Counted from the first letter of the stretch, positions 4,124-55,101 are shown. The stretch: DNA of 64,000 nt from an uncultured Erysipelotrichaceae bacterium (GCA_902787955.1 CADAIJ010000003.1:13907-77906), one strand, 5' to 3'. The notes: generated from the sequence alone by a model not told the origin. Program-made: numbers and translations.

Positions 4124-4666
4124 ATGCTTATCTTAGCTAGTCAATCTCCAAGAAGAAAAGAATTATTAAAGAAAATTGTTCCTGAATTTTTAATTATGCC
4201 TGCGGATGTTGATGAACATTTAAATGTTGATCCATACACTCTTCCTATGGAAGCGGCTTACTTAAAAGCAATGACTATTTTTAAAGATCACCCAAATGAT
4301 GAAGTACTTGGAAGTGATACAGTTGTTATCGTAGATGGAGAATTATTTGGAAAACCTAAAGATGAAAATGACGCTTATAGAATGCTTAAAGCGTTAAGCG
4401 GGAGAGACCATGATGTAGTTAGTGGCTATGCCTACGTTTCAAAGAAAAAAACCATCAAAGGGTCCACTAAAACAGTTGTTCACTTCAACGAACTAAGTGA
4501 TGAAACTATCTGGAAATATATAAAAACAGGCTCGCCTTTAGATAAAGCGGGAGCCTATGGAATTCAAGATGAAGAATTTCATCTAGTTAAATCTATAGAA
4601 GGAAGTTTAGATAACGTAATTGGACTTCCAACTGAAGATATTAAGAAAAATTGTTTTAGTGATTAA
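4124..4666 (+). CDS. maf: Maf-like nucleoside triphosphate pyrophosphatase.
   Basis: 180 aa with the N-terminal LILASQSPRRKELL signature. Confidence 0.85.
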   Translation: MLILASQSPRRKELLKKIVPEFLIMPADVDEHLNVDPYTLPMEAAYLKAMTIFKDHPNDEVLGSDTVVIVDGELFGKPKDENDAYRMLKALSGRDHDVVSGYAYVSKKKTIKGSTKTVVHFNELSDETIWKYIKTGSPLDKAGAYGIQDEEFHLVKSIEGSLDNVIGLPTEDIKKNCFSD

Positions 4667-43421: not shown

Positions 43422-44279
43422 TTAAGCTTGAGGAGCTTGGTTAGCTTGCATTTCTCTAATTGCTTCGTTGAAATCCGCTAAGAATTTGTCATAAACAGGT
43501 TTCCAAGCGAGTTCCCATTTTTGGGTTTTTTCACGAGCAATCTTCTTCACATCAGTAAAGATAACACCAAAGTTCTTTCCTTGTGGAACATCTCTACGAC
43601 CACTAGTCATTTCAATTAAAGCAAAAAGTGGATCAATTAATTCATAGTAATCAGTTGATGTGACTGGAGAATTTTGTCTTTCAAAATTGAATTGGTTAAC
43701 GCAGCGGCCAATATCGTTTTGAATGAAGTTAGATTGAGGAGTAGTTGCGCCTTTAGCTTCTTGACGAGCTTTGTTATATTCTGCAAATAAATGATCAAAT
43801 TCATCTAAAAGGAGCATATTAACTAAACCACGATAGAAGTTTTCGGTTTTAGCAATAACGTCATCAAGCTTATCAGCTTCATAAGCGTTTTCTTTCTTAG
43901 CAGCGTTAACGTGAGCAACGATAATGTGACGAATTTCTTCATAAACTGGAAGAACAAGTTCGAAAACTGCTAAATGTTGAGCATGGTCAACACGAAGTTC
44001 AGCATTATCACCTGCAACACGAACAATGGTAGATTCTGGAGAATAAATGCCATCGATTAATTCATTAATCTTAGCTAAGAGTTTTTCACCAGCTTCACCA
44101 GAATTGTCTAAGCAATTTTTAAGTGGAGTGTTTTGTGTGATTTCATTTTTGATGATTTCTTTACGAGCTTCATAAGCGCGAACTTCGTATTTATCTTTTC
44201 TCATGGTGTATTCAAGAGTGTTTAAGATAACGACGTTGTAGCGGATAAAGCTAGAAATCGCTGTTGTGTAATTATTCAT
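43422..44279 (-). CDS. Hypothetical cytoplasmic protein.
   Basis: 285-aa ORF. No recognisable motif. Confidence 0.35.
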   Translation of the reverse strand: MNNYTTAISSFIRYNVVILNTLEYTMRKDKYEVRAYEARKEIIKNEITQNTPLKNCLDNSGEAGEKLLAKINELIDGIYSPESTIVRVAGDNAELRVDHAQHLAVFELVLPVYEEIRHIIVAHVNAAKKENAYEADKLDDVIAKTENFYRGLVNMLLLDEFDHLFAEYNKARQEAKGATTPQSNFIQNDIGRCVNQFNFERQNSPVTSTDYYELIDPLFALIEMTSGRRDVPQGKNFGVIFTDVKKIAREKTQKWELAWKPVYDKFLADFNEAIREMQANQAPQA

Positions 44280-45897: not shown

Positions 45898-47067
45898 CTA
45901 TTTATTTAATAGATTTTTGATAATTTCAACTTTATCAAGCTTTTCCCAAGGGAGGTCTAAATCAGGTCTTCCCATGTGTCCATATGCCGCCAAATCTTTG
46001 TAATTAAAGGTTGGTTTACGGAGTGAGAAATTCTTAATAATCATACCTGGTCTACAATCGAAGACTTTATTAACTACATCAAGAATTTTTTCATCACTAT
46101 ATTTTGATGTTCCAAATGTAGATAAACCAATTGAGACAGGTTCTGGTCTACCTATTGCATACGCTAATTGAACTTCGAGTCTATCAGCAGCGCCCGCAGC
46201 AACTAAATTCTTAGCCATATATCGAGCCATATATGCTGCACTTCTATCTACCTTAGTTGGATCTTTTCCACTAAAAGCACCACCACCATGACGAGATGCA
46301 CCACCATAGGTGTCAACGATAATCTTTCTACCAGTTAAACCAGCATCAGAGGCAGGACCACCGATAACAAATAAACCGGTTGGATTAATTAAAATCTCAA
46401 AATCTGTGTTGAGTCCAAATGATTTAACAACTGGAATCATGATTTCATTTTTAATGTATTCTTTGAATTCTTTTTCATTAAAATCTGGATCATGAGAAAT
46501 TGACATTAAGACTGTTTTAATTCGAACATTTTTAGGGTCAGTATAATCGACTGTAACCTGGGATTTCATATCAGGTCTAGCCCATCTAAATTTGCCTTCT
46601 TTTCTTAATTTGGTGGCAGTTCTTACTAGTTTATGGGCAATTACGATCGCTAATGGCATATACCCTTCAGACTCATTAGAAGCATAACCAAACATGATAC
46701 CTTGGTCCCCTGCTCCTGTATCTTCTTCTTTACTTGCGTCAACCCCTAAAGCGATATCTCTAGATTGAGGTTTAATCTTCACATCAATCTTTACAGTTTT
46801 ATCAGAAAAACCAATATCAGGATTTGTGTAACCAATATCTCTAATAACATCTTTAACAATCTTTTCAAAATCAATCTTTGCGTTACTTGTGATTTCACCC
46901 CCAATTAAAACATAATCGGTTGTACAGAAAACTTCACAAGCCACTCTTGAATTCGGATCTTGCTTTAAACAATTATCTAAAACTGCATCAGAGATTTGAT
47001 CACAAACCTTATCTGGATGTCCTTCTGAGACAGATTCACTAGTGAATAAGTTTTGATATTTTGCCAT
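45898..47067 (-). CDS. metK: S-adenosylmethionine synthetase.
   Basis: 389 aa with the MetK signatures GGGAFSGKDPTKVDRSAAY and GHPDK. Confidence 0.9.
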   Translation of the reverse strand: MAKYQNLFTSESVSEGHPDKVCDQISDAVLDNCLKQDPNSRVACEVFCTTDYVLIGGEITSNAKIDFEKIVKDVIRDIGYTNPDIGFSDKTVKIDVKIKPQSRDIALGVDASKEEDTGAGDQGIMFGYASNESEGYMPLAIVIAHKLVRTATKLRKEGKFRWARPDMKSQVTVDYTDPKNVRIKTVLMSISHDPDFNEKEFKEYIKNEIMIPVVKSFGLNTDFEILINPTGLFVIGGPASDAGLTGRKIIVDTYGGASRHGGGAFSGKDPTKVDRSAAYMARYMAKNLVAAGAADRLEVQLAYAIGRPEPVSIGLSTFGTSKYSDEKILDVVNKVFDCRPGMIIKNFSLRKPTFNYKDLAAYGHMGRPDLDLPWEKLDKVEIIKNLLNK

Positions 47068-47245
47068 TTTGATAACCTCCTAAATAAACAAAAGGGCTCC
47101 CACTAGGTGGAAAGCCCTTTATAGGTCAGTTTCCTTCGCTTTATCGTTCGGATAGTGGGTATCCGCTTGGGAAGAGCACTTACTTATTAAAGAGTTGCTA
47201 CCGCGATTTTTCATCCCTCTTATCACGGTTCTTGATAAAACTGCA
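47068..47245 (-). promoter_or_regulatory. metK 5' leader with an intrinsic terminator just upstream of the RBS. It is a putative SAM-responsive riboswitch of uncertain class, resembling a divergent SAM-I.
   Basis: On the minus strand the promoter TTGCGA-17-TATAAT sits at 47249-47277. A leader of about 175 nt follows. It contains a possible P1 UUUUAUC/GAUAAAG, a GCAAC and AGUGCUCUUCCCAAGCGG resembling the conserved GGUGC..UUCC..GCAGCGG. The terminator AAAGGGCU-loop-AGCCCUUUUGUUUAUUU comes next, and then AGGAGG-ATG. Confidence 0.45.
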
Positions 47246-47282
47246 GTTATTATAAATAAAATATTAGGTATTCGCAACAGAT

Positions 47283-47534
47283 TTAGTTAGCTTTCAAACC
47301 TTTAGCTAATTGATCTGGACAAGATGTAGTTTTCGTTCTACTTCCACGACATTCGATACCATCAAGTCTTTTAATAGCTTCTTCAACGGACATACCAACA
47401 AGTAAACGGCATAATCCAGTTGTGTTACCTTGACAGCCACCGACGATTTCAACGTTTGTAATAATACCGTTTTCGGTAGTTACATACATCTTGCGGGAGC
47501 AGACATTTTGAGGAGTAATTTCAATAACAGGCAT
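47283..47534 (-). CDS. TSCPD-domain small protein (TIGR03905-like).
   Basis: 83 aa with the GGCQGN...GIECRG...TSCPDQLA pattern typical of the TSCPD domain. Confidence 0.5.
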   Translation of the reverse strand: MPVIEITPQNVCSRKMYVTTENGIITNVEIVGGCQGNTTGLCRLLVGMSVEEAIKRLDGIECRGSRTKTTSCPDQLAKGLKAN

Positions 47535-48166
47535 TATTTAACAATTTCTCCATAAACTTCACCGAATGCACTAGCAGCATTACATTCGTCAGTATCAATA
47601 TGCATTGCTAGAGCAAATTTTGGTGAAACACGGATAACTGTGTCATCAAAGATGGTTTTTCTACCTTTGCCAGTATCCACTAAAACGGAAACGATTTGTC
47701 CATTTTCAACACCGAATTCTTTAGCATCTTCTGGTGTCATGTGAATGTGACGTTTAGCAACGATAACGCCTTCTTCAATATCAACTTCACCAGCTGGACC
47801 TTTTAAAGTACATTTTGGTGAACCAGCAATATCACCGGATTCTCTAACTGGAGCAGAGATTCCTAATTGTCTAGCATCAGTAAATGAAACTTCAACTTGG
47901 TTAGCGTTTCTAACTGGACCAAGAATTGAGAATTTTAAACTTGGACGTGGGCCATTTGGATCTTTAGCGTTATAGCCAATGACGTCAATTCTATCTGTGG
48001 AAGCAAATTGGCCAGGTTGAGAAAGCATCTTACGAACTTCAAGTTCATGACCTTTTCCAAATAAGACTTCTAATGTTTCTTGTGTAACGTGTACGTGTCT
48101 CGCGCTTGTTTCTACAATAATCTTTTTCATACGATTCTCCTTTATTGCACGAGAGTATTTTAACAC
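47534..48166 (-). CDS. PduL-family phosphate acyltransferase (phosphate propanoyl/acetyl-transferase).
   Basis: Two repeated ARHxH motifs (SARHVHV and AKRHIHM) in a protein of about 210 aa. Confidence 0.7.
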   Translation of the reverse strand: MLKYSRAIKENRMKKIIVETSARHVHVTQETLEVLFGKGHELEVRKMLSQPGQFASTDRIDVIGYNAKDPNGPRPSLKFSILGPVRNANQVEVSFTDARQLGISAPVRESGDIAGSPKCTLKGPAGEVDIEEGVIVAKRHIHMTPEDAKEFGVENGQIVSVLVDTGKGRKTIFDDTVIRVSPKFALAMHIDTDECNAASAFGEVYGEIVK

Positions 48167-54434: not shown

Positions 54435-54510
54435 GGATGTTTAGCTCAGTTGGGAGAGCATCGCCTTTACACGGCGGGGGTCAGGGGTTCGAGCCCCTTA
54501 ACATCCACCA
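54435..54510 (+). tRNA. tRNA-Val (anticodon TAC).
   Basis: Acceptor GGATGTT/AACATCC followed by A and CCA. Anticodon loop TTTACAC. Confidence 0.85.
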
Positions 54511-54527
54511 TTCTCTAGGGTCCAAGT

Positions 54528-54611
54528 GGAGGAATAGCGAAGTGGCCAAACGCGGCTGACTGTAAATCAGTTCCTTAGGGTTCGGTAGTTCAAATCTACC
54601 TTCCTCCACCA
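54528..54611 (+). tRNA. tRNA-Tyr (anticodon GTA).
   Basis: Acceptor GGAGGAA/TTCCTCC followed by A and CCA. Anticodon loop CTGTAAA. Long variable arm. Confidence 0.8.
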
Positions 54612-54616
54612 CTCCT

Positions 54617-54692
54617 TGGGGTGTAGCCAAGCGGTAAGGCATCAGACTTTGACTCTGACATTTCGCTGGTCCGATCCCAGCCACCCCAACCA
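54617..54692 (+). tRNA. tRNA-Gln (anticodon TTG).
   Basis: Acceptor TGGGGTG/CACCCCA followed by A and CCA. Anticodon loop CTTTGAC. The D-loop AGCGGTAAG is Gln/Glu-type. Confidence 0.8.
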
Positions 54693-54695
54693 GAT

Positions 54696-54726
54696 AATAA
54701 GAAATCTCACTGAGAGATTTTTTTCT
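54696..54726 (+). terminator. Intrinsic terminator after the first tRNA triplet.
   Basis: AAATCTC-ACTG-AGAGATTT followed by TTTTTCTTTT. Confidence 0.5.
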
Positions 54727-54834
54727 TTTATATAAATATAAATCAATAAAATGAATAAAATTTCAAAAAAGTATGGATAATAAAATTATAATGTGCAATA
54801 ATATCAAAGCGATTTTTAGAAATCGCAACGGAAT

Positions 54835-54911
54835 CTCCCGTTAGCTCAGTTGGCTAGAGCACTCGACTTTTAATCAAGGGGTCGGACGTTCAAATCGTCT
54901 ACGGGAGACCA
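54835..54911 (+). tRNA. tRNA-Lys (anticodon TTT).
   Basis: Acceptor CTCCCGT/ACGGGAG followed by A and CCA. Anticodon loop CTTTTAA. Confidence 0.85.
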
Positions 54912-54914
54912 CTT

Positions 54915-55002
54915 GCCCAGGTGGCGAAATTGGTAGACGCAAGGGACTTAAAATCCCTCGAGTGCATAACTCATACCGGTTCAACTCCGGTCCTGGGCAC
55001 CA
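54915..55002 (+). tRNA. tRNA-Leu (anticodon TAA).
   Basis: Acceptor GCCCAGG/CCTGGGC followed by A and CCA. Anticodon loop CTTAAAA. Long variable arm. Confidence 0.85.
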
Positions 55003-55026
55003 TCAATACGCCACTTTTTAATTTAT

Positions 55027-55101
55027 TGGGGCGTAGCCAAGCGGTAAGGCAGCGGGCTCTGAACTCGCCATTCACTGGTCCGAATCCAGTCGCCCCAGCC
55101 A
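55027..55101 (+). tRNA. tRNA-Gln (anticodon CTG).
   Basis: Acceptor TGGGGCG/CGCCCCA followed by G and CCA. Anticodon loop CTCTGAA. It is a paralog of the TTG isoacceptor. Confidence 0.8.

Follow-up and report, generated by a model that had tools for sequence, protein, structure and literature searches.

Among the described riboswitches for S-adenosylmethionine (SAM), SAM-I (the S-box) has a P2 helix split by a kink-turn (K-turn), the pseudoknot PK-1 and the helix P4; SAM-IV has P2a and P2b arranged around a 4-nt turn, PK-1, a second pseudoknot (PK-2) and P5, with no P4; and in SAM-I/IV P2 is unsplit, PK-1 is absent and PK-2 is formed by the P3 loop with the 3' tail (PMC6890682). The K-turn of SAM-I, made of tandem G.A pairs (G19, A20, G35, A36) and a 3-nt bulge, divides P2a from P2b (PMC2258182, PMC3651934). 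It was described as conserved in SAM-I aptamers by Barrick and Breaker (PMC2258182), and Schroeder et al. reported that it is strongly conserved and that its conversion to a simple bulge, or the single A1nC change, abolishes SAM binding (PMC3651934). Here we analysed the leader of metK, the gene for S-adenosylmethionine synthetase, in a 64,000-nt stretch of DNA from an uncultured Erysipelotrichaceae bacterium (GCA_902787955.1, CADAIJ010000003.1:13907-77906; hereafter the window, with positions counted from its first letter). This leader is very probably a SAM-I-type riboswitch that represses metK by premature termination at high SAM, in a variant form in which P2 is a plain hairpin and for which we propose a switch between two segments, X and Z.

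The leader is about 175 nt long on the minus strand and starts near 47242, upstream of metK. A first-pass annotation of this DNA had taken it for a SAM-riboswitch-like transcription attenuator with a divergent P2, ending in a strong terminator before an AGGAGG ribosome-binding site (RBS). Promoter, leader, terminator, RBS and metK all lie where they had been placed, and the attenuator itself is supported by the match to the Rfam SAM-I family, RF00162, and by covariation of P1-P4 and the pseudoknot. The sequence pieces singled out at that time, namely the P1 strands (G)UUUUAUC/GAUAAAG(C), a GCAAC and AGUGCUCUUCCCAAGCGG, are present, and P2 indeed does without the usual GGAGGGA...GCCC. For comparison, metK loci were sampled from one genome per species and their leaders set against that of the window. 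The aptamer is made up of the following parts.

47241-47138, minus strand: the whole aptamer, a SAM-I four-way junction (full-length RF00162 alignment, covariation).
47241-47234, minus strand: P1 5' strand, GUUUUAUC (Rfam alignment, minimum free energy (MFE) fold, covariation).
47233-47230, minus strand: J1/2, AAGA, with the SAM-pocket nucleotides G11 and A12 (both invariant in 40/40 relatives).
47229-47200, minus strand: P2, an unsplit hairpin in which 8 bp (47229-47222 with 47207-47200) close a loop of 14 nt, AAGAGGGAUGAAAA (47221-47208) (fold, covariation).
47217-47214, minus strand: PK-1 5' strand, GGGA, within the P2 loop (pairs with UCCC at 47172-47169).
47213-47208, minus strand: A-rich linker UGAAAA, joining the pseudoknot strand to the P2 3' strand (conserved; the family consensus is UGAAAAA, 7 nt).
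47199-47175, minus strand: P3 (AGCAACUCU...AGUAAGUGCU), which holds G43, C44, A45, C47, G56, U57, G58 and C59 of the pocket (all invariant in 40/40 relatives).
47172-47169, minus strand: PK-1 3' strand, UCCC, in J3/4 (covariation).
47165-47149, minus strand: P4, a hairpin in the junction, CGGAUA/UAUCCG with loop CCCAC at 47159-47155 (Rfam alignment, fold, covariation).
47145-47138, minus strand: P1 3' strand, GAUAAAGC (Rfam alignment, covariation).

A permissive Rfam scan of 47000-47350 (351 nt) gave one meaningful match, SAM-I (RF00162) at 47241-47138, with 42.0 bits and an E value of 1.9e-8. This match runs the full length of the model (positions 1-108): its alignment covers P1, J1/2, proximal P2, P3, J3/4, P4 and J4/1, and omits as a local end the 19 model positions of distal P2 that hold the K-turn and P2b. 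No other riboswitch family matched this interval, neither T-box nor SMK among them; where related Rfam families overlapped, the best match alone was retained, and the one retained was SAM-I. The first-pass annotation had recognized SAM-I pieces and had left the class unclear; with RF00162 as the sole match and with the covariation described below, the class is settled as SAM-I-type. The same annotation had suggested covariance-model searches as a check, to be read against a riboswitch should no model score above threshold. Taken literally, that is the outcome, since the gathering cut-off of RF00162 is 44.4 bits, and yet the match spans the whole of SAM-I and skips distal P2. The leader is a structural variant of the SAM-I kind rather than a plain member, having no K-turn and scoring below the Rfam cut-off.

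MFE folding of the leader gave the terminator together with P1, P3, P4 and a P2 of 8 bp capped by a loop of 14 nt. All four helices of the SAM-I junction are predicted, and all of them covary. The nucleotides listed as forming the SAM pocket (U4, A6, U7, G11, A12, G43, C44, A45, C47, G56, U57, G58, C59, A87 and U88; PMC3764141) are all present in the window leader, and each is invariant in 40/40 relatives apart from U4, kept in 34 of the 40, and U88, kept in 39. From its sequence the leader is expected to bind SAM, and we have high confidence that its function would be that of an ordinary SAM-responsive attenuator of metK.

Covariation was measured on an alignment of 40 plain-P2 leaders, with slid partners and 500 shuffles as controls. 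Standard pairs fill 94.0% of the cells, against 33-42% for slid partners, and double-sided changes are seen at 25 of 36 pairs; the covariation score of 0.578 (0.172 when shuffled) was reached by none of the 500 shuffles. P1 is paired in 91.9% of cells, with double-sided changes in 5 of its 8 pairs, and P4 in 99%, with 4 of 5 pairs covarying; the inner pairs of P3 covary as well. For PK-1, between the P2 loop and J3/4, 85.7% of cells are paired and the six inner pairs carry 10-19 compensatory changes each. We also built a dedicated covariance model from P1, the pseudoknot, P3 and P4, leaving P2 out. Although absent from this model, P2 is paired in 95% of cells and all 7 of its pairs covary. A structure-blind MAFFT alignment gave 91.8% paired overall (P2 95%, pseudoknot 77.5%), with 7/7 pairs covarying in each of the two, and RNAalifold recovered P1, the plain P2, P3 and P4 de novo. 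A longest-helix test of the pseudoknot with G-U pairs allowed (own 5.85 bp, cross-sequence 4.18, shuffled 4.29) has a high background in such A/U-rich sequence and was superseded by the in-register pair counts. The same aptamer and a terminator occur in 40/40 related metK leaders, and the fold z-score of the window leader is -2.3, so the leader is more than a chance arrangement.

The pseudoknot characteristic of SAM-I, between the P2 terminal loop and J3/4, is present in the window as GGGA/UCCC. The K-turn is not: P2 is here an uninterrupted Watson-Crick helix that ends in one loop and has no internal loop, where canonical SAM-I has P2a, K-turn and P2b. P2 anatomy was surveyed over 117 distinct combinations of loop and J3/4. 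The stem has 6-8 bp, the loop 13-19 nt and the 5' spacer 2-5 nt, and the pseudoknot strand lies directly in the loop. The pseudoknot helix measures 4-8 bp with a mode of 6 (canonical SAM-I: 4 bp) and is built from 60 distinct 5' strands; 6-7 of 7 pairs show double-sided changes across relatives. After the pseudoknot strand follows a 7-nt 3' linker of consensus UGAAAAA (positions 1-5: U 93, G 95, A 79, A 93, A 98, with 109-117 loops scored per position). A self-folding hairpin is possible in just 3 of the 117 distinct P2 loops, and therefore there is no P2b. Of the nucleotides given as highly conserved in the SAM-I core (PMC3764141), those of the K-turn and P2b have no counterpart here. In canonical SAM-I, A61 docks on P2b (PMC3764141); this position is never A in the 40 relatives, and the family differs from canonical SAM-I in having the linker and in lacking the docking of a J3/4 adenine on P2b.

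In this architecture the P2 loop pairs directly with J3/4 as an H-type pseudoknot, and the UGAAAAA linker probably supplies the fold-back given by the K-turn in canonical SAM-I, a turn-forming role that we infer from its conservation and position. The linker, UGAAAA(A), is similar to the bulged strand of the canonical SAM-I K-turn (U34 G35 A36 A37 A38 in Thermoanaerobacter tengcongensis numbering), and it may be an evolutionary remnant of the bulged strand of a lost K-turn. A "split" K-turn, with the pseudoknot as its C helix and tandem G47212.A47218 and A47211.G47219 pairs, could be formed by the window and was rejected, the 5' GA not being conserved: L1 of the relatives is mostly AA plus variable bases, with no conserved 5' GA partner for the UGA of the loop. 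Other RNAs swap K-turns for unrelated elements in some lineages while keeping the same tertiary contact, as reviewed by Lilley (PMC4316175). The present case can be likened to the pk-turn of Thermotoga maritima RNase P and to the non-K-turn kink of the T. maritima lysine riboswitch, as a lineage-specific replacement of a K-turn (PMC4316175). Both T. maritima cases keep a kinked duplex, whereas here the whole distal helix is gone, with a single-stranded linker and a longer pseudoknot in its stead.

Compared with the named families, the window RNA shares with SAM-I the four-way junction P1-P4, the conserved core with its SAM-contacting nucleotides, PK-1, an intrinsic terminator as expression platform and a place upstream of metK in a Firmicute. 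With SAM-I/IV (RF01725; structure 4L81) it shares the binding core, Rfam clan CL00012 and an unsplit P2 without K-turn, and differs from it in having PK-1 and an in-junction P4 and in lacking PK-2. With SAM-IV (RF00634) it has in common the binding core, PK-1 and the absence of a canonical six-nucleotide K-turn, and it differs by its unsplit P2, its P4 and the lack of P5 and PK-2; what follows P1 in the window is the proposed antiterminator and the terminator, with no P5 hairpin. The combination of unsplit P2, PK-1 and in-junction P4 is found in none of SAM-I, SAM-IV and SAM-I/IV as summarised in PMC6890682. In an incomplete literature search we found no description of a K-turn-less four-way-junction SAM-I, a prior mention being possible, and the form is probably new and so far uncatalogued.

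The leaders of the sampled loci fall into three groups. Those from Clostridia-like metagenome-assembled genomes (MAGs; L054 and above) have the canonical P2a, K-turn and P2b. Those of Longibaculum, Catenibacterium, Massilimicrobiota and Stoquefichus (L042-L053 and L055) have a short P2 and retain the K-turn. The third group (L001-L041), from MAGs of uncultured gut and rumen organisms that are labelled as Bacilli, Mollicutes or Erysipelotrichaceae, has a plain P2 like that of the window, and its MetK proteins are 63-77% identical to the window MetK. A pattern scan of metagenome contigs from sources that include rumen, gut, fermentation and digester added at least 120 further examples, all with the plain-P2 pseudoknot layout, which brings the total to at least 160, all from uncultured gut, rumen or digester Bacilli. 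Among the listed metagenome examples with a callable open reading frame (ORF), metK lies downstream in 108 of 108; three downstream ORFs that had seemed to be something else all encode MetK. The exact MetK of the window was found, in the same gene neighbourhood, in the Logan assembly of run ERR3275108.

These leaders are overlooked by standard annotation. A gathering-threshold Rfam scan of the whole window reported six tRNAs only, and scans of the same kind reported none of 38 plain-P2 leaders of relatives, while the K-turn-bearing controls L042 (62.5 bits) and L054 (67.6 bits) passed. The L007 leader (2815-2921) scores 46.6 bits on a short stretch, above the cut-off, yet it went unreported in a 136-kb gathering scan; the speed filters, besides the bit-score threshold, therefore make Rfam miss members of this clade. 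The plain-P2 clade straddles or falls under the RF00162 threshold, and the sub-threshold score of the window reflects a blind spot of the model in distal P2, not the absence of a riboswitch. The dedicated covariance model picks out a single site in each locus, in every case the metK leader, with scores of 50-107 bits; the one copy in the window reaches 90.4 bits.

Downstream of the aptamer, the window carries an intrinsic terminator and segments that could form an alternative hairpin.

47120-47091, minus strand: stem of the intrinsic terminator, AAAGGGCUUUCCAC-CUA-GUGGGAGCCCUUU, 13 bp with one bulge, -17.9 kcal/mol (fold).
47090-47082, minus strand: U-rich tail of the terminator, UGUUUAUUU, directly after the stem.
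47159-47153, minus strand: X, proposed 5' arm of an antiterminator, CCCACUA, which combines the P4 loop with two nucleotides of the P4 3' strand (pairs perfectly with Z over 7 bp).
47105-47099, minus strand: Z, proposed 3' arm, UAGUGGG, made of the terminator loop and the top of the terminator 3' strand (complement of X).
47134-47109, minus strand: proposed inner antiterminator helix, GGAAA (47134-47130) with UUUCC (47113-47109) plus CCU (47125-47123) with AGG (47118-47116) (modest family support).

An equivalent strong terminator with a U-tract is present in 40/40 relatives. Across the family, X consists of the P4 apical loop and 2-3 nt of the P4 3' strand. In a register-free test on 99 distinct leaders, the best Watson-Crick helix between X and Z averages 6.3 bp. 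It reaches 6 bp or more in 76% of leaders, against 25% for cross-sequence pairings and 5% for shuffled ones, and 7 bp or more in 47%, against 12% and 1.4%. The two segments change together, as in CCCACC/GGUGGG, UCCCACA/UGUGGGA, CCCAGAA/UUCUGGG and CCCAUAA/UUAUGGG. When the sequences were aligned on the invariant CCA/UGG core, the +1 position was Watson-Crick in 97 of 108 leaders (C-G 73, G-C 12, U-A 12), against 55% cross-sequence, and one position further on 70% were paired, against 48% for the control. Of the 54 cases with the Z nucleotide in the terminator loop, and thus free of constraint from the terminator, 46 pair. Among 14 parsable K-turn-type S-boxes there is no X:Z signal (2.9 bp against 3.1 shuffled), and several of these show the classical pairing of the P1 3' strand with the terminator 5' strand.

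In the window, X:Z encloses GGAAA/UUUCC, giving one long hairpin (47159-47099) that is incompatible with P4, P1 and the terminator: P4 is excluded because the hairpin takes P4 loop and stem nucleotides, and P1 because the pairings cross. This hairpin is the MFE structure of 47166-47099, at -14.3 kcal/mol. Across 118 distinct leaders, X:Z is the MFE structure in 55% and P4 is retained in 43%, close to bistability. A mutually exclusive hairpin together with a terminator before the RBS is the layout of a transcription attenuator, whose ligand dependence is a prediction of our model. With SAM bound, P1 and P4 would stack and the pseudoknot would be locked, leaving X unavailable, so that the terminator at 47120-47091 would form and transcription would stop before the RBS. 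Without SAM, X would pair with Z, and X:Z with GGAAA/UUUCC would make a long antiterminator hairpin at the expense of P4, P1 and the terminator, allowing RNA polymerase to proceed into metK. SAM-I uses the P1 3' strand and the terminator 5' strand for its antiterminator, while here it is apparently made from the P4 loop and the terminator 3' strand.

Several points weigh against this reading, on the side of the aptamer as well as of the switch. The window falls short of the Rfam cut-off; L015, which stands for one subgroup, has no SAM-I match even on a short stretch; and the pseudoknot of the window has only 4 bp. Removal of the K-turn abolishes SAM binding in the SAM-I aptamer of T. tengcongensis (PMC3651934), and a K-turn-less form therefore needs a compensating fold. 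As to the switch, an antiterminator that captures the terminator 3' strand must compete with a fast local hairpin. The full-leader energies (-43.2 kcal/mol for aptamer plus terminator, -25.8 for the X:Z state) favour the aptamer and terminator, so any SAM dependence must be kinetic; the aptamer can also coexist with the GGAAA/UUUCC helix, at -32.4 kcal/mol. Helices of the GGAAR/YUUCC type of at least 5 bp are modestly enriched, at 43% in own sequences, 31% cross-sequence and 17% shuffled. Finally, a fixed-column count of X:Z pairs in a MAFFT alignment of the P4-to-terminator segments gave 59.0% against 54.6% shuffled. That alignment puts the helices out of register, even the terminator stem failed in it as a positive control (61.7% against 61.6%), and the count is uninformative; it was replaced by the register-free and core-anchored tests.

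Part of this evidence would fit the same riboswitch with a classical S-box platform, in which the P1 3' strand or an adjoining purine element pairs with the terminator 5' strand (in the window AAAGC at 47142-47138 with GCUUU at 47115-47111, and/or GGAAA with UUUCC) and the complementarity of the P4 loop is incidental or serves another purpose. An antiterminator between the P1 3' strand and the terminator 5' strand is the textbook S-box mechanism. In keeping with it, a purine-rich element follows P1 by 0-4 nt in 92% of leaders and, in the ON-state fold, pairs with the terminator 5' strand, with matched variants GAGAAG/CUUCUC, GGGA/UCCC and AAAGG/CCUUU; in half of those leaders the helix touches the P1 3' strand, and K-turn-type relatives use AATAAG/CTTATT. 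Plain MFE folding, however, shows no antiterminator overlapping P1; the enrichment of this helix is the modest one just given, and in the window it starts 3 nt after P1 and coexists with the folded aptamer, so that alone it would give no SAM dependence. The covariation between P4 loop and terminator loop is also left unexplained. We regard the classical platform as unlikely, if still a serious contender, and X:Z with the inner helix as probably the operative antiterminator, in place of a P1-based pairing.

The identity of the aptamer is the other matter on which the evidence could be read differently. A SAM-I fold whose ligand has changed (for example to S-adenosylhomocysteine or another adenosyl compound) or has been lost, leaving a relic with a constitutive or protein-dependent terminator, would accord with the K-turn dependence of the canonical aptamer (PMC3651934) and with the score under the Rfam threshold. 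It is very improbable in view of the invariant SAM-contacting nucleotides, for which reason a different ligand class, raised in the first-pass annotation, is unlikely too. Compensatory changes in every helix and in the pseudoknot, over at least 160 sequences, point to purifying selection on the fold; the association with metK, the expected target of SAM feedback, is exclusive among the matches listed; and neither T-box, SMK nor any other model matches. Membership of SAM-I/IV or SAM-IV in place of SAM-I has in its favour that P2 lacks a K-turn, like the unsplit P2 of SAM-I/IV (PMC6890682), and again the low SAM-I score. Against it, the in-junction P4 covaries and is 99% paired, and SAM-IV has no P4; PK-1 is present and covaries, and SAM-I/IV has no PK-1 (PMC6890682). 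In the comparison of overlapping clan matches SAM-I was the one retained, and PK-2, looked for between the P3 loop and the 3' tail, is not found, the best helix averaging 4.3 bp against 4.0 shuffled. We hold this assignment to be very improbable indeed, and the SAM-I/IV variant suggested at first does not stand.

Tentatively, and with slightly less than even confidence, we propose that the SAM-I-type riboswitch described here represents a fourth periphery of the SAM-I clan, in which the junction, P4 and PK-1 are kept, a lengthened loop pseudoknot and an A-rich linker replace the K-turn and P2b, and the P4 loop does the switching. If so, a SAM aptamer with a four-way junction could do without the K-turn, and the regulatory helix could be P4 in place of P1; the covariation of the P4 loop with the terminator suggests a non-canonical antiterminator. 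The natural K-turn-less sequences, at least 160 in number, would amount to a natural experiment on positioning the pseudoknot without a K-turn, and to an intermediate form that bears on the relations among SAM-I, SAM-IV and SAM-I/IV. Because standard Rfam scans do not report them, SAM regulation would be going unannotated across a large group of uncultured Bacilli from gut and rumen.

The remaining features of the transcription unit are the following.

47277-47249, minus strand: sigma-70-type promoter, with -35 TTGCGA (47277-47272), a 17-nt spacer and -10 TATAAT (47254-47249).
47081-47065, minus strand: RBS AGGAGG (47081-47076) and start codon ATG (47067-47065).
45898-47067, minus strand: metK, the regulated gene, S-adenosylmethionine synthetase of 389 aa (Pfam PF00438, PF02772, PF02773).

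All three S-adenosylmethionine synthetase domains match the metK product, with E values from 1e-41 to 1e-62. The promoter, TTGCGA-17-TATAAT as first annotated, agrees with the consensus at 10 of 12 positions and ranks first of 7 promoter-like sites in the region. By motif alone that number of sites is not significant (7 against 5.7 in shuffles); the promoter is credible because of its position, the predicted transcription start (about 47242) coinciding with the first base of P1. In the MFE structure of the full leader, CCUA (47125-47122, minus strand) pairs with UAGG (47082-47079), overlapping the AGGAGG of the RBS, when the terminator is formed. This pairing could add translational masking on read-through transcripts. 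A 52-aa ORF with a TTG start (47119-47277, minus strand) lies wholly within the promoter and riboswitch; it is no gene but a mechanical ORF.

Upstream of the metK promoter, also on the minus strand, are genes for a PduL-type phosphate propanoyltransferase (47534-48166) and for an 83-aa TSCPD-domain protein (47283-47534), which overlap by 1 nt and adjoin the promoter. There is no terminator in between, and upstream read-through into the riboswitch is therefore possible. The gene order TSCPD-metK recurs in many relatives. Four relatives (L036, L040, L050 and L051) have no S-box leader upstream of metK; between metK and the TSCPD gene, L036 and L040 have instead a small ORF (about 50 aa; ...KEQFxIAxILFEMGLDFDVIE...), and a similar small ORF is found ahead of the leaders of L004, L008 and L025 and of the K-turn-type leaders of L042-L049. 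In L039, a purine riboswitch (RF00167, 49 bits) is found at 4417-4512, directly downstream of metK. Elsewhere in the window, no Pfam family matches a 285-aa ORF (43422-44279, minus strand), located downstream of the HAD hydrolase gene, at E <= 0.001, and the six tRNA genes are clustered within about 660 nt at 54435-55098 on the plus strand.

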